Positions 4,655 to 55,437 of a stretch of DNA of 64,000 nucleotides are shown piece by piece. The stretch is from Candidatus Moraniibacteriota bacterium (GTDB lineage: Bacteria > Patescibacteriota > Minisyncoccia > Moranbacterales > DUUL01). Both the position numbers and the translations under genes were made by a program. How positions within the stretch are numbered: the first letter of the stretch is position 1; each line of letters begins with the position of its first letter. The stretch spans positions 1,000,486 through 1,064,485 of the forward strand of contig JAXHLG010000002.1 of NCBI GenBank assembly GCA_034522495.1, given 5' to 3'. The notes under the pieces are model-generated. The model worked only from the letters and a program-made list of their open reading frames with translations. It was not told where the DNA came from and did not search any database.

Positions 4655-4756
4655 TTTTTTATTTTAAAATTAATTAAAAATTGTTCCATTGTTATATTGT
4701 TCAATTGTTGCATCGATTACCAATTAAAAGAATAATTAAACAATTTAGCAATTGAA

Positions 4757-4800: not shown

Positions 4801-5170
4801 ATAATTTAGCTTGTGAAGTTTATAAAGTGTGAAAGTGGAAAAAGCCACTTGTCACTCGTCACTAGTCACTAAAATTTAGCGACAAGGAGGAGGAGGGGGT
4901 GATTATTTCTATATCAGCAATAAAATAATGCAGTAATCATTAAATTACTTTGAAATAATTTATTCAAGATTCAAGATTCATAAAGTCAAGAGTAAAAAAA
5001 GTGTTCTGTCGTAAATATAAGTCACCTGTCACTAAATTTTCATTTTCCTAACTGATGTTACCTTTAAAGGAGAATCAGAAGTCTGACTTCTGGTTATTTC
5101 ATTCAAAATTTAGTGACGAGTGACGAGTGACGAGTGACTTTTTCCTTTCCCACTTTATAAACTAAATTAT
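4801..5170. repeat. Composite element: ~70-bp inverted repeats (family B) flanking a ~225-bp non-coding core
   Basis: The left arm (4801-4878) and right arm (5105-5170) are imperfect reverse complements (...ctttataaa..ttccactttcac..gtcac[n]gtcac[n]gtcactaaaattt). A third, solo arm lies at 8357-8426. Confidence 0.75.
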
Positions 5171-5230
5171 GCTTAAATGTTTAGATGTTTAAATGTTTAG
5201 ATGATAACATGTTAACATGCTAAAATGACT

Positions 5231-8218: not shown

Positions 8219-8356
8219 TGCAGATTCTTCAAGTAATTATTGAACCCTGTTTTGTTATAATAATACTTTTTCTTGGTTTTTTATTGTTCCATTGTTGCAT
8301 TGTTTCATTGTTTCATAGCTAATATAGACATCAACAAACCACTGTTGCTCGCTACT

Positions 8357-8426: not shown

Positions 8427-8513
8427 TTTTGAATGCTTAGCCCGGCCGTTAAATGCTTATGTTCGATGTTTGTATGTTTAGATGCTTAAATGTTTGTATG
8501 CTTAAATGCCTTG

Positions 8514-8550
8514 CCCCGTGTGATCCCGCTTTGCGAGAGAACTTACGGGG
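8514..8550 (+). repeat. Hairpin repeat family C, copy 2 (variant loop)
   Basis: The sequence is ccccgtgtgatcccgctttgcgagagaacttacgggg, preceded by gccttg. It is embedded in ATG-word arrays at 8449-8513 and 8551-8607. Confidence 0.75.
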
Positions 8551-8610
8551 TTTAAATGTTTGTATGTTTAAATGTTTAGATGTTTAGATGTTTGTATGCT
8601 TGTATGAACC

Positions 8611-14400: not shown

Positions 14401-15054
14401 TCTTTCGAGCTTTTTTTTCTTTTCCGCTTCCCTGGAAGCCAAGAATGAATCCCTTCTTTCCCTGGTTTGCCGGAGCTGTCTTTTTTCCTCCCGGATTTGC
14501 TCAAGAATCCATTGATGCCTTTCTTCTTTGGAAGAATTCCTCAATGAAACTTGCTGAGAAGCCGGTTTGTTTTTCAATATATCATCCAGCGGAACATATT
14601 TTGCAGAAGCTTCCTGCGAAAGCCCGTACTTTTCCCGAATGGAATTCAGCAAACGCTCTTCGGCCTTTTTTTCATTTTCTTTTTCTTTTCTTTCTTTCTG
14701 TCTTTTCAAAAAATCCTCTCTCTTTTTTCTTTGTTCCTCCAATTTTTTTTCTTCCTCCCTTATTCTCTGCCTGGTGATTTCCTCCCGGCGCTTTTTTTCT
14801 TCCAATCTCCTTTCGGCCAACTTGTTCACTTCAAAGAATTCCCGGGAAGGGTTTTTCCAGATATCGTCAATCGGAGCGCCCGGCTTGGCCTCCCGGAATC
14901 CACTCTCGCGCTGCTTGAATTCTTGCTTGGATTCAATCCTTATTTTCTCCGGCAAACCAATATATTTCTCCGCGTCAAAATCTCCCCGCTCGTTAACCGG
15001 CCTAACATCGAACATCTGCGGTATCACATTGTTCTTTTGTTTTCTTTTCTTCAT
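11479..15054 (-). CDS. Large membrane-anchored DUF4012-family protein with ~470-aa Lys/Glu/Arg-rich coiled-coil N-terminal region
   Basis: The C-terminal part has the DUF4012 signature FQNNQEMRATGGFIGSYGVLDV. One TM helix (CVCLVIFLIVLSG) is present. The N-terminus is low-complexity (KQKREQEELAIQRKKEEEKQKREQEKL...). Confidence 0.7.
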   Translation of the reverse strand: MKKRKQKNNVIPQMFDVRPVNERGDFDAEKYIGLPEKIRIESKQEFKQRESGFREAKPGAPIDDIWKNPSREFFEVNKLAERRLEEKKRREEITRQRIREEEKKLEEQRKKREDFLKRQKERKEKENEKKAEERLLNSIREKYGLSQEASAKYVPLDDILKNKPASQQVSLRNSSKEERHQWILEQIREEKRQLRQTRERRDSFLASREAEKKKKLERKAGLMESKRRPRPAEPAESEGLKPEKKDNLREIERKSQEKKIQERIASLKNEIKKTRHYYLGCKISEELPLYHIIPPERTENAKQKSLKEIISLFEQKQTDPGLNIFGQKQAAKNEERLHFYREKLRRLEKEEEERWERARRAREQKEMERRRLLKEREKEREKQKREQEELAIQRKKEEEKQKREQEKLILQRRRQEQEKEKERQKKQEELQKQRQREERERQKQLERKKRKQEKLALQRQKEEEKKRKAEQKEWQKLKKMEAKEEARRQKEKEKAYRRNQKELKSRQVAASWKNMRQALSAAPGRVFGTSFWKPAFSFGCVCLVIFLIVLSGRFASYGFQLKDDVEVKGQQASRHIAKAKEEFENKNIDRAILNLNQAKKEIKEANQRINKLGGNMMEAFSHVPFLSKIGSGKKLMNAGEELMEAASLLGGTVEKISKIENPLESQEGNKQGIGDVFLHINEDLAEAGKHLKKANHNLQEVNPGDVPERYRDEFKKGKEFLPQAIAYIEELNKNQFVFKDLLGYNGPRKYLFLFQNNQEMRATGGFIGSYGVLDVHEGHVEELFIDGIFNPDGQLDVNVIPPKPIQKISAAWSTHDSNWFPNFPTSAEKISWFYEKTGGPTVDGVITFTPDVVKKLLEITGPIEMPEYDTTLTAENFVDKTQFKVEFDYDKEENKPKKIIADMAPKLLDKVFAKRDLEGIAETLNVFSEALDQKHILVYSRNHEIQNLVSQLGWSGEVLDTKKDYLMVVNSNINGFKTDGVIDQKIDHNAEIKPDGSIVDTVTITRKHNGGNSEYEFYNKVNANYMRVYVPEGSKLLDVQGHTREFNSAPLDYEKLKFQKDSQVAQLEQSMEIDQETGTRIYRAENKTVFGNWVYVSPQEEVKVTYKYRLPFKVDVDKNKDKTDYYSLLAQKQSGSAETEFSSSISKPDNFDLFWKYPEEIEAKPDNLKLNSNLEVDRFIGTVFRKKGAED

Positions 15055-16181
15055 TGCAGAACTTTTTTATATACTTGCAATGTTTCCCGGGCGTTTTGCT
15101 TCCAGTCAAACAGCGGCAAGCGCTTCCTTCCTTCTTCCAATGTCTTTTTTTTCTTTTCCGGATTTGATAAAACTTCTTGAATAGCCTTTTTTATCGAATC
15201 AACGTCTTCCGGATCAAAATACAACGCCCCCTCCCCGAGAATCTCCGGCATTGAAGACTTGTTCGAACTGATTACCGGACAATTGTGGGACAAGGCCTCC
15301 AACGGAGGCAGCCCGAACCCCTCATAAAGAGAGGGGAAAACATAGCATTCAGCCTCCCGGTAAAAGGCTCCCAGGTGTTCATCCGGTATGAATCCCGGCA
15401 AATGAATTCCGTCTATTTTTTTCTTTTGGATAAAGCTTTCCAGTTTTTCATAAAAAAAGTCTTTTCCTCCCACCAAAACCAGATTCAAACTTTTTTTCCG
15501 TTTTTGAATTTCCTTGAAAGCCAAGCACAGCCTATCCAAATTCTTGTGCGGATAAGCGTTGCCCACATAAAGCAAGTACGGTTTCACTATATCATATTTT
15601 TTAAAAATTGTCTCGGGCGTTTTTCGATTTTCTTTTTCGGTGAATTCGCATCCTTCTTTTATCACCTCTATCTTCCCGGGGTTGATTTTAAAATTTTTCA
15701 ATATATCCTTTTTGGTGAAATCAGAAACGGTAATAACTCTTTTTGCCCGCTTTACAGCCAGAAAAATAACCAACCGATAAGCCAGAAGCTTGAACATATA
15801 GTAAGCCTTGCCGAGGGTGGTGTTCTTGAAAGTGGGATAATGGAACAAGATTAAGTCGTGGATAGTAACTGCAAACTTTCCCCGGTAAAAAACCGGGACG
15901 TTGAAGTGCCCGAAGTGCATCAAGTCGAGCTTGTATTTGTTGAGAAAAAAAGGGAAAAATAATTGCTCCCGCCAGCCGTACCAATCAAAATCGGCCAAAA
16001 CCTTCTTGAAATTTCGGCTTTTTGGGTGAAATTCATCAAAGTTTTCTTTTTTCAAAAAAACCAAGTACTCATTCTTCGACCCCCCGTCAATTTTTTCCAA
16101 ATTTTCCACCAGCTTTTGCAGATACCGTCCCAGCCCCTTGACCTTCGGTCCGTAAAAGCGAGCGTCGATGCCGATTTTCAT
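15051..16181 (-). CDS. Glycosyltransferase family 4 (GT-B, retaining)
   Basis: The N-terminus is MKIGIDARF. The E-x7-E region reads PSLYEGFGLPPLEALSHNCPVISS. The stop overlaps the downstream start by 4 nt. Confidence 0.85.
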   Translation of the reverse strand: MKIGIDARFYGPKVKGLGRYLQKLVENLEKIDGGSKNEYLVFLKKENFDEFHPKSRNFKKVLADFDWYGWREQLFFPFFLNKYKLDLMHFGHFNVPVFYRGKFAVTIHDLILFHYPTFKNTTLGKAYYMFKLLAYRLVIFLAVKRAKRVITVSDFTKKDILKNFKINPGKIEVIKEGCEFTEKENRKTPETIFKKYDIVKPYLLYVGNAYPHKNLDRLCLAFKEIQKRKKSLNLVLVGGKDFFYEKLESFIQKKKIDGIHLPGFIPDEHLGAFYREAECYVFPSLYEGFGLPPLEALSHNCPVISSNKSSMPEILGEGALYFDPEDVDSIKKAIQEVLSNPEKKKKTLEEGRKRLPLFDWKQNARETLQVYKKVLQ

Positions 16182-16262
16182 TGGGTTTTTTTAGTAATTA
16201 AAGTTATCGTTTTCTTATCACTAAAATTTTATAAACTTCAAAAAAGCGATCAATAAAATAAA

Positions 16263-16327
16263 GATACAAGGATACAAGAAACAAGGGTACAAATAAATTA
16301 GAAATTCCAATACTCAAAAGTTCAAAC
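16263..16327. repeat. Left inverted repeat bracketing the four-helix-bundle gene
   Basis: The sequence gatacaaggatacaagaaacaagggtacaa...aaattccaata...ttcaaac is the reverse complement of 16715-16794. This includes a perfect 16-bp terminal match. Confidence 0.8.
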
Positions 16328-16714
16328 CTATTTCTTTTTATTTTGAGTTTTGTCGATAATAGAGCACAAAATATTTTTTATTTCTTTGCCTTCTTGAATC
16401 AGATCTCTCATCCTTTTTTCAAATTCTGGGTTGGCTTCTTGAATTAACTCCAACCAATGAAGAGCTTCCTTGGCTTCTTTTCTGGCAATTCTTAGCCTGT
16501 GAATAAAATCTTTCTTGCCCAATGCATCATTAGCTTCCCTATAATTAGCGCCTATTGAGCCGGCTGAACCTGTTGCTTGACTTTTGAGTCTTTCATTAAT
16601 TGAATTTTTTGGCAGGGCCCTGCAAAGTCTTATGACTCTTTTGGCAAATTCTGTAGTTCTTTCTTCCAAGTCATATTTCGGCTTGTTTTTAGATTCAGCA
16701 TTATTGTCATTCAT
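16328..16714 (-). CDS. Four-helix-bundle protein (family formerly annotated 23S rRNA intervening-sequence protein)
   Basis: The motifs ERTTEFAKRVIRLCRALPKN...GSIGANYREANDALGKKDFIHRLRIARKEAKEALHWLELI are characteristic of that family. Confidence 0.85.
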   Translation of the reverse strand: MNDNNAESKNKPKYDLEERTTEFAKRVIRLCRALPKNSINERLKSQATGSAGSIGANYREANDALGKKDFIHRLRIARKEAKEALHWLELIQEANPEFEKRMRDLIQEGKEIKNILCSIIDKTQNKKK

Positions 16715-16794
16715 CTACTCGTTTGAATATTTAAAATTTTGGTTATTGGAATTTGTTTGTATCCTTGTCTCTTGTATCCTTGTATCCTTGTATC
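16715..16794. repeat. Right inverted repeat bracketing the four-helix-bundle gene (followed by a tandem 38-nt duplication to ~16841)
   Basis: The sequence ...gtttgaa...tattggaattt...cttgtatccttgtatc pairs with 16263-16327. CTTGTATC-type 8-bp words continue to ~16855. Confidence 0.8.
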
Positions 16795-16905
16795 GTTATA
16801 TCTTGTCTCTTGTATCCTTGTATCCTTGCATCGTTATGTCCCTGTATCCTTTTTTGTATTTTTCACCTTTGCGTCTTTTTTACCTAAGCTCTTGAATCTA
16901 AGATT

Positions 16906-18039
16906 TTATTTATTTATTTCTATTTTCCTGCTTTTTTTAGAAATCTGTTTGGCTCTTTCCGTTCCTCTTTTCTTGTATTTTTCATACACTTTTTTATCTT
17001 TTAGCAACAGCTCCATGCCCAGGAAGATTTCGTAAGAGCGGTAGGGGTTGATCAAAACCGCCGCGTCGCCGGCAATCTCGGGAAGAGAAGAGCAGTGGGA
17101 TGTTATCACCGGAACCTTGCAGGCCATTGCTTCCAAGGGAGGAAACCCAAATCCTTCAAACAAAGACGGGTAAATAAACAATAGGGCGCCGGCATAAATA
17201 TAGGGCTTGTCATTTTCTTCGATAAAATCGGTAAAAATTATTTCCCGTCGATACTTGCTATTGCGCACTCTTTCCAAAATATCTTTCCAAAGCCAGCCCC
17301 TCTGCCCGGCGATAACCAATTTTACATCGTTCTGCTTATACCGGTCTTTCCAATGCTCAAAAGCTTCTATCAAAGCGCTAATGTTTTTCCTGGGTTCAAT
17401 GGTGCCCAGAAAAAGGAAATAGCTTTTCGGGAGAGCGTATTTTCTCTTAACAGCTTTCATCTCTTCTCTGTTTCTGATTTCTCCGGAGAAAATTTTTTCC
17501 TTGAAAAAAGGATAAACAACCCTGATCCGGCTTGGGTTGATTTTGTACAGATCCTTCAAATCAGCCGCCGTGGAGCGGGAAACCGCCAGAATCACATCCG
17601 AATCCCTGCATAAGCGGCGAGGATTGACAAAGAAATGCCAAAGCCTTCTTTTAAAAGAAAAAGTCTCCGGCAGCCTTTCAAAAGAAAGGTCGTGGACGGT
17701 CAAATATTTCTTGCATTGATTGCTCAACCGGATAAAACAAAAGTTGGGAACAAAAAAAATGTCTGTTCCGCCGAGCATTTTGTCCGCTTTCGGCCAAGCC
17801 AAAAACCAGAAGCAGAAATTCAATATTTTATTGGGTAATTTAAATCTTTTTACTTCCACATTGCCAATCCCCTCTAACCACCGAAAATTTTCTTTTATCG
17901 GCTTAAAGGAATTGGTGAATAGAATAATTTGATCGTCTTTGCAATGATCGGCTAAATATTTTATCAAGCCTCTGGTATATTCTTCCACGCCCGTGTTTTT
18001 CCCCTCCTGCAGGCAGCGCGCGTCAACTCCTATTTTCAT
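16906..18039 (-). CDS. Glycosyltransferase family 4
   Basis: PSLFEGFGFPPLEAMACKVPVITS is present. I placed the start at MKIGVDARCL, by analogy with the other GT4. The ORF track start at 18069 is an upstream alternative. Confidence 0.8.
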   Translation of the reverse strand: MKIGVDARCLQEGKNTGVEEYTRGLIKYLADHCKDDQIILFTNSFKPIKENFRWLEGIGNVEVKRFKLPNKILNFCFWFLAWPKADKMLGGTDIFFVPNFCFIRLSNQCKKYLTVHDLSFERLPETFSFKRRLWHFFVNPRRLCRDSDVILAVSRSTAADLKDLYKINPSRIRVVYPFFKEKIFSGEIRNREEMKAVKRKYALPKSYFLFLGTIEPRKNISALIEAFEHWKDRYKQNDVKLVIAGQRGWLWKDILERVRNSKYRREIIFTDFIEENDKPYIYAGALLFIYPSLFEGFGFPPLEAMACKVPVITSHCSSLPEIAGDAAVLINPYRSYEIFLGMELLLKDKKVYEKYKKRGTERAKQISKKSRKIEINK

Positions 18040-18697
18040 GGCTATTTTCTTCTTTGAAGTAATGAACAAACAGCGTTAAAAAAATTCCCGCCACCAAGCC
18101 GGCGACAGCTGAAACCGCCAAATAAAGCCACACGCTTGGCTGGTTTTTATGTACCGCAAGATTCCCGTATTCCAGCTTAAACCAAGTGGGATCGTCCTTG
18201 TCGGAATTCAAAACCTCCGCTTTGTTATCCAGAGCGGTTTTTAGAGATTGAAAAGCCGGATTGATTGCTTGTTTTTCCAGGCTTTTATATTCCACTTTTA
18301 CATAATTGGAACTGGGCTGGCGGGCCTGCAGGCTTTTTATGGAAGAAAAATTCTCCCCTCCTTTTGCCGAAAACTCTTCCCCGGCTTCGACAAGAAGCCC
18401 GGGATCGTTTATCCAATAGGTGATGTTTTCCGCAAATTTCTCGTCGGCCTGAAGCCTGTAAAATTGGTCATGCCTGTATTCTTCCGTCTCTTGATAATTT
18501 TTCCTGTCAATGTTTACGGAAAATGAAGCTTGATAAAACCGGGATTGGTATTGCCAAAGAAAAAAGCCGGCCAGCAAAAAAATCCCGACGGCAATCCAGA
18601 TTAAGCGCCGGTGTTTTTTTAATAATCTTATAAACTCCTTCAGTTCCATACTTTCATTTTTTAATCGACATTGCGCGATTTTTTTCCCACTTTCCAA
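18023..18697 (-). CDS. Wzz-like polysaccharide chain-length determinant / co-polymerase-like protein
   Basis: The topology is bitopic: an N-terminal TM (LIWIAVGIFLLAGFFLW) and a C-terminal TM (VWLYLAVSAVAGLVAGIFLTLFV) around a ~150-aa loop. It sits inside a GT locus. The call rests on topology and context only. Confidence 0.45.
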   Translation of the reverse strand: MESGKKIAQCRLKNESMELKEFIRLLKKHRRLIWIAVGIFLLAGFFLWQYQSRFYQASFSVNIDRKNYQETEEYRHDQFYRLQADEKFAENITYWINDPGLLVEAGEEFSAKGGENFSSIKSLQARQPSSNYVKVEYKSLEKQAINPAFQSLKTALDNKAEVLNSDKDDPTWFKLEYGNLAVHKNQPSVWLYLAVSAVAGLVAGIFLTLFVHYFKEENSHENRS

Positions 18698-20172: not shown

Positions 20173-20352
20173 GATTTTATCATTTTATCATGTTAACATG
20201 TTAGCATTTTAGCATGTTAGCATGTTAGCATTCTTGAGTTTGCATGTTTAGATGTTTAAATGTTTAAATGCTTGCATGTTTGTATGTTTGCATGCCTTGC
20301 CCCGTGTGAGCGATAGCGAATTTACGGGGTTTGTATGTTTGAATGTTTAAAT
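20173..20352. repeat. Array of >20 degenerate 8-bp 'ATG words' containing family C hairpin copy 4 (20300-20329)
   Basis: In one register the sequence reads attttatc attttatc atgttaac atgttagc attttagc atgttagc atgttagc ... gtttagat gtttaaat gtttaaat gcttgcat gtttgtat gtttgcat. The hairpin is ccccgtgtgagcgatagcgaatttacgggg. Confidence 0.85.
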
Positions 20353-20369: not shown

Positions 20370-21436
20370 GTGCCCCTTTTTTAAAAAATTAAGAGCGTTT
20401 CACAAAAATTTCATTGGGGGTTAAATAGTTAAGCGATTTCCTGGGACGGTTATTAAGTCTTTCCTGCACTAACAGTATATCTTTTTCCGTAGCATTCGCA
20501 ATATCTCCCTTCTTGGGAAAATATTGCCTAATAAGTTTGTTAAGATTTTCTACCCCTCCTTTCTGCCAAGAGCAATAAGGATCGCAGAAGTAAGAAGGGA
20601 CATCAAAGTTTTCCAAGGTTTCCAAATGCTTAGCATTTTCTCCTCCGTTGTCTCTGGTCATGCTTTTAACCCAAGATTTAGGGAAGCCCTCTATAGTATC
20701 CGCAATAGAATCCTCATTCTCCATTGCTGATTTGCCCCATACTTTGTGAAGCCGGCAAAGCATTCCCTTTCTTTCATATTTAACCGATAAATTCTCTTTC
20801 TGTTTTCTGCCGAATTCCACCAAGTCTGTTTCCCAGTGCCCATACTCTTTTTTCTTGTCTGCCTCTTTTGGCCTTAAATGAATAGAAACCCTATTTTTCA
20901 GCTTATTTCCTTGCTTTTTGCGAAAATATCTTTTCTGCCTTTGCTTTCTCCCAACTCTTAAATGCCGGTAGAGTTCTTTGTGCTTTTCTGCTCCGTTGTA
21001 GATATAGTCATAGATACTCTCATAGCTAATAGTTTCCATAATCCCCGGAGGCGGTTCCTCTTTTAATCTTCCAGCAATCTGTTCCGGTGACCAATCCCCG
21101 CTAATTTTTTTCTCCACGTATTCTTTCAATTTCCGATTCTTTTCTTTATCCAGTTTTCTCTTGTTAGTATTTTTAGCCCTCCTTTCCATAAAGTACTGGG
21201 CATCTATTGCTCTGTAGGGCAGATGCTCCCCTGAATTTCTTTTAATCTCTCTTTTAATGACAGAATAATCCCTGCCCAATTTTCGAGCTATCCAAGCTTT
21301 CTTTCTTTTTAGCCTCAAAGAAACTTCGATTATTTCTCTTTCATAAAAAGTTATCGGCTGCATATTCACAATTAATTATTAGCTGAAATCTATTGCGAAT
21401 ATACTACTCTTAATCTTGTTTGAGAAAAAGGGGCAC
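20370..21436 (-). mobile_element. IS30-family insertion sequence, apparently intact (1067 bp)
   Basis: The terminal inverted repeats are gtgcccctttttt..attaagag (20370-) and ctcttaat..aaaaaggggcac (-21436). They enclose a single transposase ORF. I saw no obvious target-site duplication. Confidence 0.8.
20389..21369 (-). CDS. IS30-family DDE transposase
   Basis: The N-terminal HTH reads REIIEVSLRLKRKKAWIARKLGRDYSVIKREIKRN. The catalytic region reads GHWETDLV ... MTRDNGGEN ... WQKGGVENLNKLIRQYFPK. Confidence 0.85.
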   Translation of the reverse strand: MNMQPITFYEREIIEVSLRLKRKKAWIARKLGRDYSVIKREIKRNSGEHLPYRAIDAQYFMERRAKNTNKRKLDKEKNRKLKEYVEKKISGDWSPEQIAGRLKEEPPPGIMETISYESIYDYIYNGAEKHKELYRHLRVGRKQRQKRYFRKKQGNKLKNRVSIHLRPKEADKKKEYGHWETDLVEFGRKQKENLSVKYERKGMLCRLHKVWGKSAMENEDSIADTIEGFPKSWVKSMTRDNGGENAKHLETLENFDVPSYFCDPYCSWQKGGVENLNKLIRQYFPKKGDIANATEKDILLVQERLNNRPRKSLNYLTPNEIFVKRS

Positions 21437-29804: not shown

Positions 29805-30086
29805 ATATAATCGCCTCTTTAATTTCGACAAAATTAATTTGAACTAGAAAAATGAACAAAACACAAATTCCAATGAACAAATAATACACAAAACACATTT
29901 CCAAAAACACAAACACAAGTAATTTTGTGACTAGTGACTAGTGACTAGTCATCGGTCATCGGTCATCAAAACAATTTTCTTAATTTCCTAACAATTCAAC
30001 AATGAAACAATGGAACAATTTCTATAAATCTCAACCGTATTTCAATTTATATCCACCATATATCAACCATATATCTCACTATAAGT

Positions 30087-39530: not shown

Positions 39531-39585
39531 AGAATGTAAATGCTTATATGTTTAAATGCTCGTATGTTAAAATGTTAAAATGGAA

Positions 39586-45012: not shown

Positions 45013-45100
45013 AAGTAAATTCAATTGTTAAATTGTTTCATTGTTTCATTGTTAAAGAATGCCTATTAAAGAAACTTGCAATGGAACAATAAAGCTATAA

Positions 45101-47405: not shown

Positions 47406-47444
47406 AACAATTAACAATGGAACAATGGAACAATGGAACAATTT
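47406..47444. repeat. AACAATGG 8-bp word array
   Basis: The sequence is aacaattaacaatggaacaatggaacaatggaacaattt. Related arrays lie at 4681-4712, 8281-8325, 29991-30020, 45023-45053 and 48758-48788. Confidence 0.85.
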
Positions 47445-47454
47445 CTAATAATTT

Positions 47455-48693
47455 TTACATTCCCTTAATAACTTCTTCCAACCTAGCTTTTTTGTCCACA
47501 ACTTCCACTTCTACTCCCAATTTCTGCAAATTCTCTTTGGCTCCTTTACCCATGTATTTGGCGATCGCTTTGTCCGCTTCCACACTCTTTATAAATTTAA
47601 CTCCTTTTCCAGTAGCTTGTTCAAAATAAGGATTTTTTTGAATTCTTCTTCTTTTTAACTGATTTTTCTGAAAATCCAAGATTAAATAATATTCAGCTCC
47701 AAATTCATTTGGATTTATTTCTTCTTTATCTTTACCAACAAGGGGAACCGCGACTCTGTAGTCCATTTTTTTGGGTCCAACTTTTTGAAATCCTCTCCTG
47801 TATCCAAACCTGCCCCAAAACCTCGGCTCGAAAACTCCGGAGGAAACTTGATGAGATTTAACGGATATCGTTAAATAAGAAAGCTCTTCTATGTCTTCCA
47901 GCATATTTTCTTTAAGCTTTGAAGTGATTTTGTCAACTTCTTCCATGGAAGCATTTTTTTCGCAAAGCAAGAACACTTCAGCAAAATTGGTGCTGCCAAT
48001 TTTTCGAGTCTTGATTTCCTCAAAAGAAAAATTTTTATCCTTCAAGTACCGCTCGACCTTCTTCTCCAATTCCGGGTTAGACTTGTCAACCAACGACCCG
48101 ACAGTTTCCCCGGTCATGCCCCAGGCTTCTTTGATAATGTAAACACCTACTATCAGGGCTATCATAATGTCTGCAAGCGGAAACCATTTCACCAGAAGCA
48201 ATCCGGCTAATACCCCAACCGAGGCAATTACGTCCGCCCGATCATGCTGCCCGTCGGCCACCAGCACTGAAGAACCAGCCTTGCCGCCAACTCGGAACTT
48301 AATCTGAGCCATAACCTCATTCAAAACCACCGAAGCTCCCATAATGGAAATGTTCAACAGGCTGAATCCCGCTAGCTGCTCTTGATGGATAAGCGCGTTA
48401 ACCGCTTCGAATAAAATCCAAACGGCGCCCAGATAAAGCAACCCCACTACTACGAATGTTGCCACCATTTCATACTTGGCATAACCGTAGGGGTGTTCCT
48501 TGTCGGGTTCCTTTTTGGACTTTCTAATGCCCCACCAAGCCACGCCGGAAGAAAAAACATCCGCCGCCGAATGAACTCCCTCGGCCAACACCGCCACCGA
48601 TCCGGTAATTAAGCCGGCTATAATTTTGAAAACCGTCAATAAAAAATTGACAGAAAAACCTAAGATGGCTACGAAAGAAACATTTCCAAACAT
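47455..48693 (-). CDS. Cation diffusion facilitator (CDF) transporter fused to a C-terminal NifB/NifX-type (FeMo-cofactor-binding-like) domain
   Basis: The CDF motifs are LAEGVHSAADVFSSG ... HPYGYAKYE ... DGQHDRADV. The C-terminal ~100 aa read YRVAVPLVG...EFGAEYYLILDF...GKGVKFI...KLGVEVEVV. Confidence 0.7.
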   Translation of the reverse strand: MFGNVSFVAILGFSVNFLLTVFKIIAGLITGSVAVLAEGVHSAADVFSSGVAWWGIRKSKKEPDKEHPYGYAKYEMVATFVVVGLLYLGAVWILFEAVNALIHQEQLAGFSLLNISIMGASVVLNEVMAQIKFRVGGKAGSSVLVADGQHDRADVIASVGVLAGLLLVKWFPLADIMIALIVGVYIIKEAWGMTGETVGSLVDKSNPELEKKVERYLKDKNFSFEEIKTRKIGSTNFAEVFLLCEKNASMEEVDKITSKLKENMLEDIEELSYLTISVKSHQVSSGVFEPRFWGRFGYRRGFQKVGPKKMDYRVAVPLVGKDKEEINPNEFGAEYYLILDFQKNQLKRRRIQKNPYFEQATGKGVKFIKSVEADKAIAKYMGKGAKENLQKLGVEVEVVDKKARLEEVIKGM

Positions 48694-48757: not shown

Positions 48758-48788
48758 AATTGTTCCATTGTTCCATTGTTTCATTGTT
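48758..48788. repeat. AACAATGG-word array (reverse orientation)
   Basis: The sequence is aattgttccattgttccattgtttcattgtt. It lies ~65 nt upstream of the CDF start. Confidence 0.8.
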
Positions 48789-48850
48789 GAGATCCAATAA
48801 ATCAACTAGCCTCTTTACTAAAGATAACCATTTAACAATTGAATAATTTA

Positions 48851-51199
48851 TCAATTTAACACCGCCTTCACCCTCCTCACGCCTGCGCTGGAGCTTTCTT
48901 CTTTGGCGATCTTGAAAGCGCCTTCGATCTCTCCGGTGTTTGTAACGTGCGGACCTCCGCAGATTTCCTTGGAATACCCTTCAATAGTATAGACTTTCAC
49001 CTTCTCTCCATATTTGTCTTCAAAAGTGCCTTGCGCGCCGGCTTCTTTGGCTTCTTCCAGCCCCATTTCTTCCTCTTTGACATCCACCTTGGCCCGGATT
49101 GCATCATTAACATATTCCTCAATTTCCTGAATCTGCTCCGGAGTCAGTTTGTCCGGATGAGTAAAGTCAAACCTGATTCTTTCTCCATTGATATTAGAAC
49201 CGGCTTGATGCACGTGATCGCCCAACACCTTCCTCATTCCCGATAACAACAAATGAGCCGCCGTGTGAAGCTGCTTGGTTTTTTCTTTAGTGTCGGCCAA
49301 GCCTCCTTTGAACATTCCCGCGCTGGCAGTTCTGGAAAGCTCTTGATGGCTTTTCAATTCCTTCTGAAACTCTTTTTCGTCCACCACCATAGTCTTTTCC
49401 TTGGCAAGCTCTCTAACCATTTCAATGGGAAATCCATAGGTCTGGTAAAGATCAAAGGCTTCCTTGCCGGTAATTTCATTACTCCGCTCTAAATGAGGCG
49501 GAAGAGCTTCATCCTCGATTGTCTTGACTTCATCCGGTTTTCCTTCGGCAAATTTCTGCAGGGCTTTGAAGCGATGAGAAATCTTGTTTTTATCTTCCTT
49601 CATTTCGGAAAAAGTATTCTCGTAACCCTCCGGAACGAAAATCGGGTCAAATCCGAATTCGAGTTTAGAGCTACCCAGCCTTTCTTCCGTTATCCTGCCC
49701 CTTACCTCTCCTTCATAGAAAGACAAATTTCTTCCGTCAAAGTGGGCTATCACGCATTTGGCCACAGCCTTTCTGTTTTTCCCTTCAGTCAAATCCAGCA
49801 GTCCCTGGGTGCTCATATAGTCAATAAACCACTTAATCAAAGCCCCCGGAAATCCGCTCCAGGCTTCCAGATGCAAAGAAGTGTCCTCTACAATGATCGG
49901 CTTTTTGAATTTTTTGTAGGCTTCAATTATCTTGTATTCGGCCACTTCTCGAGGCTCGATAGCTTGAACCTCCGGCAAAGATGATTTGACATAATCCAGC
50001 TCCAACCTGTCTCCGGTCAACTGGCGATATTCCTTTATCTTGTTAGGATTGGTGGAAATTAAAGACACCTTTCCTTTCTTGCCGGCAATTTTTTCAAACT
50101 CCTTTAAGCCTTTTTGCAAAGTTTTCCTGAATTTGGACTCTTCTTTTTCAATAACAGCAAGAATTTTGGATCGATTGACTTCCGGATACTGGTCTTTGTA
50201 GATATAGACCGCTTCCGCGGCCGCTTCTTTGGTAAAGTTTTTTTCCAATCCGAGTTTGTAGCCTTCCCTTATAGCCCTTCTTATCAATCTTCTGAGGATA
50301 TAGCCTCTTTCGCTATTGGAAGGCTCTACTCCGTCCGAGGCAATAAACACGGCAGCTTTCAAGTGATCGGCAATAATCCTGAGGGAAGTATAATAATCAT
50401 AATATTTTTTGTCCGACATTTCTTCCAGTTTTTCAATTATCGGCCAGAAAAGCTCGGTTTTGTAATCATCATTGATTCCGTTGATAACCGAAAGCATTCT
50501 CTCCATTCCCATGCCGGTGTCCACGTTCTGGCTGGGCAGCGTTTGGAAGCTGCCGTCGCGTGTTTTTTCATATTCCATAAAAACATTGTTCCAAATTTCC
50601 ACCCACCTGTCGTCGTTGGGATCGAATTTTTTGGGTAAATCTTCTTCTCTGCCACTCCAATAAAAAATCTCCGAATCCGGTCCGCAAGGTCCGGTTTGAC
50701 TGGGAGGCCCCCACCAATTTTCTTCTTTGTCCAGCTTGGCTATGCGGTCTTGGGAGAAACCCAGGTCCCTCCACGCTTGGAAAGACTCTTTGTCAAAAGG
50801 CGCGTCCGAATCTCCCATAAACACGGAAACTGCCATCTTCTCTTTGTCAAGGCCGAGCCATTGGGGGGAAGTGAGAAATTCATAGCTCCACTTAAGCGAT
50901 TCTTCTTTGAAATAATCTCCCAGGGACCAATTGCCCAGCATTTCAAAAAAAGTATGATGGGTGTCATCGCCCACTTCATCAATGTCGATTGTCCTGATGC
51001 ATTTTTGAACGCTGGCCAGTCGTTTTCCTTCAGGATGCTTTTCTCCCATCAAATAAGGAACCAGGGGCTGCATGCCGGAACTGATGAAAAGCGAGGTGGG
51101 ATCATTCTCGGGCGCCAGGGCTGCCGAAGGCAAAACGGCGTGGCCTCTTTCTTGGAAAAAATTCAAAAACTTCCCTCTTAATTCTTTAGCTGTGATCAT
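48851..51199 (-). CDS. alaS: Alanine--tRNA ligase with inserted ITPA/Ham1-type NTP pyrophosphatase domain; no C-Ala domain
   Basis: The catalytic motifs are FISSGMQPLVPY, QKCIRT and FEMLGNWSLGDYF, followed by the tRNA-recognition domain. The insert spans residues ~377-553 (FGFDPIFVPEGYENTFSEM...ISHRFKAL). The editing domain carries HTAAHLL and CGGPHV. Confidence 0.9.
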   Translation of the reverse strand: MITAKELRGKFLNFFQERGHAVLPSAALAPENDPTSLFISSGMQPLVPYLMGEKHPEGKRLASVQKCIRTIDIDEVGDDTHHTFFEMLGNWSLGDYFKEESLKWSYEFLTSPQWLGLDKEKMAVSVFMGDSDAPFDKESFQAWRDLGFSQDRIAKLDKEENWWGPPSQTGPCGPDSEIFYWSGREEDLPKKFDPNDDRWVEIWNNVFMEYEKTRDGSFQTLPSQNVDTGMGMERMLSVINGINDDYKTELFWPIIEKLEEMSDKKYYDYYTSLRIIADHLKAAVFIASDGVEPSNSERGYILRRLIRRAIREGYKLGLEKNFTKEAAAEAVYIYKDQYPEVNRSKILAVIEKEESKFRKTLQKGLKEFEKIAGKKGKVSLISTNPNKIKEYRQLTGDRLELDYVKSSLPEVQAIEPREVAEYKIIEAYKKFKKPIIVEDTSLHLEAWSGFPGALIKWFIDYMSTQGLLDLTEGKNRKAVAKCVIAHFDGRNLSFYEGEVRGRITEERLGSSKLEFGFDPIFVPEGYENTFSEMKEDKNKISHRFKALQKFAEGKPDEVKTIEDEALPPHLERSNEITGKEAFDLYQTYGFPIEMVRELAKEKTMVVDEKEFQKELKSHQELSRTASAGMFKGGLADTKEKTKQLHTAAHLLLSGMRKVLGDHVHQAGSNINGERIRFDFTHPDKLTPEQIQEIEEYVNDAIRAKVDVKEEEMGLEEAKEAGAQGTFEDKYGEKVKVYTIEGYSKEICGGPHVTNTGEIEGAFKIAKEESSSAGVRRVKAVLN

Positions 51200-55145: not shown

Positions 55146-55437
55146 GTCGTAAGATGCGGAATTTAAGGTGCGAAAGATTAGATATAAGCAACAAAAGAAA
55201 AGAAGTTAAAAATAGCTTAAAAACAATTCAAAAGTCAAAATTCAAAACGCAAAGCTATGGCTCAAAACTAAAAGCTAAATAAACAAGCAAAGTCGGTTCT
55301 ATGTATTTGCTTCTTTACATAAAATTTCCTAAATCTTTTATCTGTTTGTTTGAGCATATAAAACTATTTTAGTTTTAAGTTTACAGTTGTAGTTTTGAGT
55401 TTTGCTTTTTGCGATTTGAGTTTCAGTCCCCAATAAA

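Follow-up and report, generated by a model that had tools for sequence, protein, structure and literature searches.

A four-helix-bundle gene between inverted arrays of short repeats forms a discrete cassette inserted in a glycosyltransferase operon of a Moraniibacteriota bacterium

A stretch of 64,000 nucleotides from Candidatus Moraniibacteriota bacterium (hereafter the window) contains a discrete cassette that was inserted as one unit, in sense orientation, between two GT4 glycosyltransferase genes of an envelope-glycan operon. The cassette consists of a gene for a four-helix-bundle (4HB) protein and two inverted arms that include tandem arrays of an 8-nt unit (Table 1).

Table 1. Coordinates, in window numbering, of the cassette, its parts and the adjoining host genes
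Feature	Position	Strand	Description
Whole cassette (5' arm + ORF + 3' arm)	16251-16855	-	605 nt; matched end to end by second genomic copy
5' arm (upstream, sense strand)	16715-16855	-	Unique inner segment 16715-16756 + ~12 units GGATACAA/GATACAAG at 16757-16851
38-nt tandem duplication inside 5' arm	16764-16801 / 16802-16839		95% identity (repeat search)
4HB gene, 128 aa	16328-16714	-	Profile matches to PF05635 23S_rRNA_IVP / TIGR02436
3' arm (downstream, sense strand)	16251-16327	-	Unique inner segment 16293-16327 + ~4 units CTTGTATC (GATACAAG on + strand) at 16261-16292
Upstream host gene, GT4 glycosyltransferase	16906-18069	-	PF00534 at 1.4e-31; co-oriented
Downstream host gene, GT4 glycosyltransferase	15051-16181	-	PF00534 at 4.2e-36; co-oriented

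The ends of the cassette read AAAAAAGGAYAC ... GTATCYTTWTTT, and each comprises an arm of GATACAAG units followed by ~35 nt of unique inverted sequence. TRF detects 12.2 copies of period 8 in the 5' arm (16757-16851) and 3.9 copies of the same period in the 3' arm (16263-16292), an asymmetry of ~12 units (~95 nt of repeats) versus ~4 units (~30 nt). An earlier note, made from the letters of the window, had missed this make-up from 8-nt units. The same note had described a 128-aa 4HB gene of the family known from ORFs in rRNA intervening sequences (IVSs), lying between two co-oriented GT4 genes and bordered by reverse-complementary flanks whose outermost 16 bp are perfect, and each of these points holds. 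Positions 16260-16319 and 16730-16789 form a 60-nt inverted repeat with 78% complementarity, and 16263-16278 is the exact reverse complement of 16779-16794. The 38-nt tandem duplication that it reported is also real (TRF period 38, 1.9 copies, 97% matches), with coordinates that had been given 2 nt off. The unique inner segments are complementary as well, and both arms share a matched 1-nt indel. On the sense strand the 5' arm is purine-rich, as are 65 of the 83 upstream arms of the class described below. The inner motif TATTGGAATTT..ATTTGT of the 3' arm recurs in two cassettes from other host families (L040 and L041), and is kept even where the proteins of the cassettes compared share only 49-51% identity.

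The encoded protein matches both PF05635 (65.2 bits, cut-off 33.8) and TIGR02436 (85.7 bits, cut-off 24). By sequence it also matches PDB entry 2RLD, which we take to be BT_0352 of Bacteroides thetaiotaomicron, with an E value of 1e-14; this entry and that of a second solved relative, 2GSC, contain five chains each. Values of dN/dS are 0.08 against the paralog at C2:601649 and ~0.26 against that at C2:323075, indicating that the 4HB ORF is under purifying selection. One report (PMC3936711) gives RxxxSxxxNxxE as a conserved motif of PF05635 proteins. S53, N57 and E60 of this motif are present; where the motif has Arg, the window copy and its twin have Gly49 (QATGSAGSIGANYRE), and the paralogs at 323075 and 603367 retain the Arg. 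A single-sequence AlphaFold model is all-helical and poorly packed (pLDDT 77, pTM 0.57), and a fold search with this model returned nothing significant.

Relatives of the host provide empty versions of the site. The orthologue of the downstream GT4 gene directly follows the upstream GT4 gene in the same-genus genomes G002 and G001, where spacers of ~45 and ~85 nt contain neither arms nor a 4HB ORF, nor any arrays whatever. When five more distant relatives are included, junctions lacking both arms and 4HB ORF span 15-150 nt; in a sixth relative (G008), this junction is occupied by another small ORF. A second copy of the cassette, located at C2:331860-332453 of the same genome (G000), is 94.4% identical over 605 nt, arms and ORF included, and has one 8-nt unit fewer at the 38-nt duplication. 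This copy resides between polA and a permease gene, with homology stopping at the arm tips and unrelated DNA outside both copies. Thus, the empty junctions of relatives, together with a second copy in an unrelated context, identify the segment as an insert. The cassette is also absent from the polA site in same-genus genomes, where gene order after polA differs, so that there is no clean empty site. Reads cover the ORF at twice the depth of its flanks, as fits two genomic copies; Logan contigs of the source metagenome contain no empty-site joint and reflect only the depth due to copy number.

Within the operon, the stop codon of the upstream GT4 gene lies 50 nt ahead of the outer end of the cassette. 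There is a weak promoter-like site at 16253-16226 on the minus strand, and no terminator-like site on that strand between the two GT4 genes. A role of the cassette as promoter or terminator was rejected because such sites are no commoner than in shuffled sequences.

Two further pairs of cassettes in this genome match along whole units (93% over 484 nt and 89% over 548 nt), so that three such pairs occur among its 19 family members. More than 40 additional copies consist of arms only. The 4HB gene is the only ORF of the cassette, which contains no transposase or recombinase. An IS30-like gene 3.7 kb away, at 20389-21369, is a separate element. No direct repeat that would represent a target-site duplication was found around either copy, or at filled and empty sites of the Bacteroides-type locus described below, the spacers being too diverged for a base-exact comparison of empty sites. 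Terminal inverted repeats composed of sub-repeats are known from MITEs and foldback-type elements. The cassette resembles these elements in having inverted ends of short tandem units, in inserting between genes, and in the coexistence of many gene-less, arm-only copies with few that carry a gene. Terminal inverted repeats at several unrelated sites, as expected of a transposon or MITE, are seen here in two full copies and the arm-only ones. Unlike such elements, however, the cassette has no transposase in or near it and no target-site duplication, and its cargo is a four-helix bundle without a known catalytic motif.

The association between 4HB genes and inverted arms extends well beyond the window. 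An inverted-flank score was computed for 1094 approximate genes of the genome (median 18, 95th percentile 30). The 4HB gene of the window scores 64 and ranks ninth, and the top 55, or top 5%, include 12 of the 17 scored 4HB genes (Fisher p = 4e-13). Furthermore, all six inverted array pairs that are spaced 300-600 nt apart bracket a 4HB gene. Wider samples of loci were picked by similarity to the proteins of this genome, and so are not random for the family: 21 of 29 4HB loci from ~20 related genera reach or surpass the 95th percentile of this genome, and 41 of 78 loci of other lineages, from a genome-collection scan whose narrow alignment biases it towards one protein subfamily, lie above the 95th percentile set by mismatched-pair controls. 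At Bacteroides-type loci the gene lies between araD and araA, with arms of AATTGAC (five units) and GTCAATT (four units), and in three close relatives the site is empty and without arrays. In Xanthomonas, loci with a 4HB gene between accB and accC have GGGAATC-type arrays on both sides of that gene.

A typical cassette among the sampled loci has arms of about four 7-nt units (median 3.9). [quoted passage not shown] Co-orientation with both neighbors is observed for 75 of 94 cassettes (p = 5e-9). The class of repeat unit tracks the protein tree, requiring 2 changes compared to 11-14 among the shuffles listed. Armed 4HB cassettes look like a widespread class, ranging from Patescibacteria to Bacteroides and Xanthomonas, of which the window cassette is a member. 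We found no literature that links PF05635 genes outside rRNA with flanking heptamer arrays, most subscription journals being outside the coverage of the search.

To place the protein family in context, two other settings of related genes can be considered. Avd, the accessory protein of diversity-generating retroelements, is related to PF05635 (PMC10053308) and belongs to the same protein superfamily as the 4HB protein of the window. A distant 4HB copy (C2:1307852-1308196) adjoins a reverse-transcriptase-like ORF at C2:1305974-1307146, ~290 kb from the cassette. Identity of the window gene as such an accessory was rejected, as it has no adjacent reverse transcriptase and its neighbors are GT4 genes. 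Genes annotated as 23S_rRNA_IVP are also found within cas operons, as in the case of one between cmr3 and cmr2 (Zhang & Ye 2013, PMC3936711). These genes are of the same family as the cassette gene and likewise lie between functionally linked operon genes, but in the passages considered, that paper reads them as having a possible Cas-associated function.

The minus-strand RNA from 16870 to 16230 folds with a free energy of -143.5 kcal/mol, compared to -115.6 +/- 5.95 kcal/mol for shuffled versions (z = -4.7, with none of 20 shuffles as good), and its minimum-free-energy structure contains the long-range stem looping out the ORF that the earlier note had anticipated. The arm-arm duplex alone has a value of -85.9 kcal/mol versus -46.9 +/- 6.2 kcal/mol in shuffles. 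An RNase III gene (rnc, 240 bits) is encoded in the genome. We consider it moderately probable that these features reflect how an inserted, armed 4HB cassette is accommodated by its operon. The cassette would be co-transcribed with the GT4 genes, and its two arms would pair to form a stem of 50-60 bp that loops out the ORF. This stem would then be a substrate for RNase III, as are those of ORF-bearing 23S rRNA IVSs, and its cutting would permit the insert to be tolerated inside a transcription unit.

ORF-bearing IVSs in the 23S rRNAs of Coxiella and Leptospira (PMC4990558 and works cited there: Afseth 1995; Ralph & McClelland 1993) offer the basis for this proposal. The S23p IVS of Coxiella burnetii occupies helix 45 of 23S rRNA, where its terminal inverted repeats form a stem of 28 bp (PMC4990558). 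Inside this stem, three copies of GACAGAT and a degenerate fourth directly precede the S23p start codon, and the copy number differs between strains. RNase III cuts the stem in vitro, and the ORF is reported to be decaying and unexpressed, such that the protein is apparently not made (PMC4990558). Like these IVSs, the cassette carries an ORF of the same family in the loop of stem-forming terminal inverted repeats, has short purine-rich tandem repeats immediately before the start codon, lacks a recombinase, and is distributed sporadically in a manner that suggests horizontal transfer. In contrast to 23S IVSs, which are in rRNA, it is flanked by protein-coding operon genes. Its unit is 8 nt rather than the heptamer of Coxiella, and its arms are longer and asymmetric. 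Moreover, the Coxiella ORF is decaying whereas that of the cassette is under purifying selection, and thus the biology of the two may differ. Cutting by RNase III is demonstrated for the Coxiella IVS; for the cassette, we infer that excision by this enzyme might occur at the RNA level. No RNA sequencing run was found that contains this sequence or either of two related loci. No Rfam families were found within 1.5 kb of the window copy or of four other genomic copies. With no rRNA gene near these copies, the cassette resembles an IVS, yet none of the five is a true IVS. The earlier note had suggested an insertable, IVS-like cassette that is not restricted to rRNA genes, and had proposed looking for inverted flanks at other 4HB genes and for empty GT4-GT4 junctions in relatives. 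Both were found, and the 94% identical second copy and the likeness to Coxiella point in the same direction.

Two tests for selection at the level of base pairs nonetheless gave null results. Mismatches between arms show no sense-strand excess of G:U (50 sense versus 64 antisense, with 131 transversions), and across 24 cassettes the succession of variant units in one arm is not mirrored in the other (mean z = 0.007). Given that unit order is not mirrored, the complementarity of the arms may simply follow from the presence of the same motif in both, and the two null tests make protein-binding arrays an equally possible reading of the arms. The far greater length of the 5' arm, and the failure to find a target duplication or a recombinase, likewise count against the proposed scheme. 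A 4HB homopentamer or a host factor could bind these arrays, either pairing the DNA ends for movement or effecting self-control in the 5' leader, and RNA pairing would be a by-product. Several observations are in keeping with such arrays: the unit class follows protein lineage rather than host, the median number of units per arm can be set beside the five chains in the entries of solved relatives, the purine-rich arm has a fixed polarity relative to the ORF, and arm sequence is kept between cassettes whose proteins are ~50% identical. Ac/Ds, En/Spm and Tn7 provide precedents, as their ends contain subterminal repeat arrays that are bound by an element-encoded protein. However, a catalytic motif for DNA movement is not known in a helical bundle of 120 aa, and binding by the 4HB protein is putative. 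Complementary unique inner segments with a matched 1-nt indel are not required by a pure array model, and in Coxiella, RNase III demonstrably cuts the stem (PMC4990558). On balance we judge protein binding as the primary role of the arms to be possible but rather doubtful. It is compatible with the formation of an RNA stem, and the two are not exclusive.

Arrays of 7-8-nt units are unusually abundant in this genome, with ~470 in intergenic regions (35 per 100 kb), far above the 0-12 per 100 kb of ten relatives. Among these relatives, array density has no clear relation to 4HB copy number, being 0-12 per 100 kb at any count, which suggests that the array bloom is specific to this genome. A few ordinary genes also lie within inverted arrays, namely rbfA, a KH-domain gene, rmuC and a CDF gene (47455-48693 of the window). 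Sixteen array hairpins contain no gene. One of these (C2:322224-322361) reads ...CAAAC-A-GTTTGA..., and the cassette reads ...CAAAC-[GAGTAG ATG..ORF..TAG]-GTTTGA..., placing the ORF exactly at the apex position. It is therefore conceivable that 4HB ORFs insert into the apices of pre-existing array hairpins, and that the arms belong to the target rather than to the element; helix apices are likewise where rRNA IVSs are located (PMC4990558). Such a route is improbable. The empty junctions of same-genus genomes and of Bacteroides-type relatives have no arrays, relatives that are array-poor have armed 4HB genes all the same, and the unit class follows the protein tree. Furthermore, the direction of the ORF is coupled to the polarity of the arms, which random entry into a symmetric hairpin would not give. 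That two arrays of the same family merely lie by chance beside a small gene, perhaps as promoter, terminator or insulator elements of the operon, is highly improbable despite the abundance of arrays and the ordinary genes that they bracket, given the 4HB enrichment, the duplication of the whole unit elsewhere in the genome, the same design in array-poor genomes and in other phyla, and promoter-like and terminator-like sites at no more than shuffled frequency.

Intergenic heptamers have been noted in other bacteria, and cyanobacterial STRR heptamers are reportedly the subject of work by Mazel et al. in 1990. Over-represented examples include GGGAATC in Xanthomonas, where 70-75 array pairs are convergent on opposite strands, and GGGGA(C/T)T in Nostoc (Rehm et al. 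2015, PMC4692102). In Geobacter metallireducens, hepta- and octanucleotide sites occur in pairs (PMC2700814). Those repeats share with the arrays of this genome their tandem 7-8-nt units, mostly about four in number, and their frequent arrangement as convergent pairs on opposite strands. They differ from the cassette in that most arrays are without a gene, and a link between gene and array covers part of them at most. Earlier papers treated such repeats as G-quadruplex or regulator sites (PMC4692102, PMC2700814). XCC0516, accB and S23 are not mentioned in PMC4692102, and a term search of PMC2700814 finds neither "four-helix" nor "23S".

These likenesses lead us to propose, tentatively, that PF05635 genes, together with inverted arrays that comprise about four units of 7-8 nt, form one pan-bacterial system, which settles in operon spacers or, as IVSs, in rRNA helices. 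The pentamer might recognize its own array, with approximately one protomer per unit, for movement or for self-control. Arm-only derivatives of gene-carrying masters could then be the source both of the heptamer excess in Xanthomonas and Geobacter and of the ~470 arrays observed here. We regard this broader scheme as possible rather than probable.

Intervening sequences in rRNA and the S23p ORFs that they carry have been a puzzle since about 1990. To our knowledge, their origin, mobility and function are all unexplained, and the same applies to the intergenic heptamer excess in many bacteria. The cassette and its relatives connect the two, as the same family with the same purine-rich arms is found in ordinary operons of several phyla. 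For armed cassettes, presence and absence between close relatives are seen along with recent duplicates within a genome. The present genome is a useful natural case, with 19 members, three whole-unit pairs and a bloom of arm-only arrays that is absent from relatives. Both puzzles become testable in cultured carriers for which 4HB structures have been solved, namely Bacteroides thetaiotaomicron (2RLD, ara operon) and Xanthomonas (XCC0516, 2GSC, accBC).

The 128-aa product of the small ORF between two co-oriented GT4 glycosyltransferase genes matches PF05635 (23S_rRNA_IVP) with 65.2 bits and TIGR02436 (four helix bundle protein) with 85.7 bits, both exceeding the curated cut-offs, and matches PDB chain 2RLD with E = 1e-14. 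It thus belongs to the four-helix-bundle (4HB) family first noticed as ORFs in 23S rRNA intervening sequences (IVSs), as the earlier note had recognized. Values for dN/dS of 0.08-0.26 indicate that purifying selection acts on the ORF. As also described in that note, the flanks of the gene are reverse complements of each other, and the outer 16 nt pair exactly; over 60 nt, 78% of positions are complementary. The predicted minus-strand RNA fold of the region, in which a long-range stem loops out the ORF, reaches -143.5 kcal/mol, compared with -115.6 ± 5.95 kcal/mol for shuffled sequences (z = -4.7). Each arm is built from tandem copies of an 8-nt unit, GATACAAG (~12 in the upstream arm and ~4 in the downstream arm on the sense strand), and carries a non-repetitive inverted sequence of ~35 nt on its ORF-proximal side. 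A 38-nt tandem duplication enlarges the upstream arm; its presence had been reported correctly, although with coordinates that needed correction.

Coordinates of the cassette and of other repeat-associated features in the window
Feature	Position	Strand	Remark
4HB ORF	16328-16714	-	128 aa
Reverse-complement flanks	16260-16319 vs 16730-16789		60 nt
38-nt tandem duplication	16764-16801 / 16802-16839		enlarges upstream arm
7-8-nt arrays	4680-4713, 5112-5138, 5169-5228, 8279-8316, 8458-8606, 20177-20352		examples
7-8-nt arrays	29927-30019, 39537-39582, 45023-45056, 47413-47442, 48759-48861, 55367-55423		further examples
Cation-efflux (CDF-type) gene	47455-48693	-	412 aa; arrays at 47413-47442, 48759-48788
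IS30-type transposase-like ORF	20389-21369	-	326 aa

The window cassette is one unit and an insert. A blastn search of the whole genome with the cassette region reveals a second copy (C2:331860-332453 on the second contig), which follows polA, precedes a permease gene and is 94.4% identical across 605 nt. Homology between the two copies spans window positions 16251-16855, which is exactly the arms and the ORF, and the surrounding DNA is unrelated. Four codon positions separate the two ORFs, and the 3' inner arm is partly diverged. Whole units are likewise shared within two other pairs of cassettes in this genome, over 484 nt (93% identical) and 548 nt (89%). Orthologous GT4-GT4 junctions are ~45 and ~85 nt long in two genomes of the same genus (G002 and G001, respectively) and 15-150 nt in five further relatives, and in all of these both the repeats and the 4HB ORF are absent. 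In G001 and G002, polA is not followed by a cassette, although synteny is lost there. Reads cover the ORF at twice the depth of its flanks, in line with two copies in the genome, and contigs of the source metagenome show no empty-site joints. No target-site duplication was found at the cassette copies, and there is no recombinase in the cassette. In a more distant relative (locus L053, G008:C1), the orthologous GT4-GT4 junction spans ~480 nt and holds a different small ORF of ~100 aa, beginning MKGKGFLELAKAMANYL and followed by a terminator-like hairpin; thus, this junction has been hit more than once. Residue 49 of the window protein is Gly, at a position where the family motif RxxxSxxxNxxE has a near-invariant Arg. 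The twin at C2:331991 likewise has Gly, and paralogs at 323075 and 603367 keep Arg.

Inverted flanks also mark other 4HB genes of this genome, which has 19 matches to PF05635. For each of 1094 approximate genes, the 150 nt upstream were compared with the reverse complement of the 150 nt downstream; scores had a median of 18 and a 95th percentile of 30. The top 55 include 12 of the 17 scored 4HB genes (ranks 1, 3, 4, 9, 14, 17, 19, 20, 25, 26, 32 and 55; p = 4e-13), with the window gene at rank 9 (score 64). Arm units differ among copies (GTTCTAA, GTCACTN, AAACATNT, CTCAAAA, CCTAAAN and GATACAAG), and all six inverted array pairs in this genome spaced 300-600 nt enclose a 4HB gene. The observation in the earlier note is confirmed, and its interpretation as an IVS-like cassette not restricted to rRNA is supported in its core by the second whole-unit copy, the empty junctions and the armed 4HB genes elsewhere.

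Four armed cassettes occur within 10 kb at another sugar-nucleotide/glycan locus (C2:936542-946103), and many cassettes in relatives adjoin GT4, GT2, UDP-glucose dehydrogenase or cysC genes, a possible sign that envelope-glycan loci are preferred. A repeat of ~6 kb is found at two contig ends (C1:1-6000 and C2:1-6000) and internally at C2:356595-362585, the latter two being 99.5% identical. It includes an identical 4HB gene as well as a 1024-aa surface-type protein, and its first 1.34 kb recurs at C2:936998, 887482, 354592 and 775517. Outside the window, a 390-aa reverse-transcriptase-like ORF lies beside a distant PF05635 copy (29.7 bits) at C2:1305974-1308196, flanked by CTAAAAATT-type arrays; this locus resembles a diversity-generating retroelement and its accessory protein Avd.

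The link between 4HB gene and arms is general. Of 29 4HB loci sampled across some 20 related genera, 21 have flank scores of at least 30, with locus-specific units, and arrays are otherwise scarce in sampled stretches of ten relatives (0-12 per 100 kb). In a non-random sample of 78 loci from a genome collection, picked by similarity to one protein subfamily, 41 lie above the 95th percentile of mismatched-pair controls, including, by record title, Atribacteria, Omnitrophota, Ignavibacteria and Kiritimatiellales MAGs. Two further cases come from organisms close to well-studied bacteria in culture. On gut-metagenome scaffolds, the araD-araA junction encodes a protein 98% identical to 2RLD between AATTGAC x5 upstream and GTCAATT x4 downstream, with 3 nt from the araD stop codon to the first array and 9 nt from the last array to the araA start codon. 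Spacers of 37-65 nt without a cassette occur in three close relatives, whose AraD is 91-95% identical; at the Bacteroides-type locus, the cassette takes the place of the entire spacer. The accB-accC junction in Xanthomonas holds a relative of XCC0516 (PDB 2GSC), enclosed by GGGAATC GGGAGTG GAGAATG GGGAATC and its complement. This GGGAATC-type heptamer is the subject of a study on G-quadruplex repeats (PMC4692102) that makes no mention of XCC0516 or accB. From a reading of the sequences in Xanthomonas citri/campestris (L181:2921-3373 and L183), the GTG start of the XCC0516-type gene appears to fall within the upstream array, and the downstream array to extend to the accC ATG.

Pooling 115 cassettes defines the class. 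An upstream array is present in 87, a downstream array in 91 and both in 73, with a repeat period of 7 in ~80% and a median of 3.9 units per arm. Median distances are 3.5 nt from the stop codon of the upstream host gene to the array, and 11 nt for the gaps between array and start codon and between stop codon and array. Cassettes share the orientation of both neighbors in 75 of 94 cases (~51% expected, p = 5e-9). Arm polarity is fixed: on the sense strand, the upstream arm is purine-rich (65/83) and the downstream arm pyrimidine-rich (62/88). Unit class (GTAAY-like or GATTT-like) tracks the protein tree, with 2 changes versus 11-14 in the shuffled labellings printed, and both classes are present in the same host groups. 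Within the window subfamily, cassettes of other host families whose proteins are only 49-51% identical share the motif ACAAATTCCAA(A)TAA / TTATTTGGAATTTGT of the inner arms, and a 1-nt indel is matched between the two arms.

The window cassette is an IVS-type cassette outside rRNA. The Coxiella burnetii 23S IVS likewise combines an ORF of the same family with a terminal stem, of 28 bp, and tandem short repeats, three GACAGAT heptamers and a degenerate one, right before the start codon; heptamer copy number differs among strains, and RNase III cuts the stem in vitro, with the 5' cut where the first repeat begins (PMC4990558). Because the two designs are homologous, the most economical reading is that the GT4 operon transcript would include the cassette, whose arms would pair into a 50-60-bp stem that could then be processed by RNase III, an enzyme encoded in this genome. 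We give the processing step, which we only infer, roughly even odds. Alternatively, the arms may be arrays of binding sites for the 4HB protein, a putative pentamer. Two tests that could have revealed selection on pairing itself were null, with no sense-strand G:U enrichment among arm mismatches (50 vs 64, transversions 131) and no mirror order of variant units between arms (mean z = 0.007, n = 24). These results fit binding arrays equally well, as do the link of unit class to protein, the fixed polarity and the roughly four units per arm. Nonetheless, an RNA stem and binding arrays are not mutually exclusive.

TRF analysis of the whole genome finds periods 7 and 8 in large excess. Merged arrays with 7-8-nt units number 470, of which 415 are intergenic, for a density of 35 per 100 kb versus the 0-12 of the sampled relatives. 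The arm of the window cassette recurs, alone or as a gene-less hairpin, at more than 40 sites. The apex of one such hairpin reads CAAAC-A-GTTTGA, and the cassette ORF is placed exactly between CAAAC and GTTTGA. Arm-only copies may be either derivatives of cassettes or targets for them; two results lean towards derivatives, in that the empty junctions of relatives are array-free and ORF orientation is tied to arm polarity. A few ordinary genes are also enclosed by array pairs: outside the window, these are rbfA, rmuC, a KH-domain gene and an ELP3-like gene, and inside it the CDF-type gene, which lies between inverted AACAATGG / ATTGTTCC arrays and ranks 12th with a flank score of 57. The 326-aa ORF adjoining the long 8-nt array at 20177-20352 has at least seven copies of identical length across the genome and, from its sequence, looks like an IS30-type transposase.

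ORF-bearing rRNA IVSs with heptamers (PMC4990558) and intergenic heptamer arrays, inverted pairs included (PMC4692102, PMC2700814), have been published, as has the 4HB family wedged into operons (PMC3936711). No paper joining IVS ORFs, heptamer arrays and operon-wedged genes was found in the full-text literature searched, the coverage of which is incomplete, such that an earlier description is possible. To these systems the window contributes filled and empty sites from two additional genera, three pairs of cassettes sharing whole units within one genome, tests of polarity, G:U pairing and mirror order, and a genome in which arm-only arrays have bloomed.
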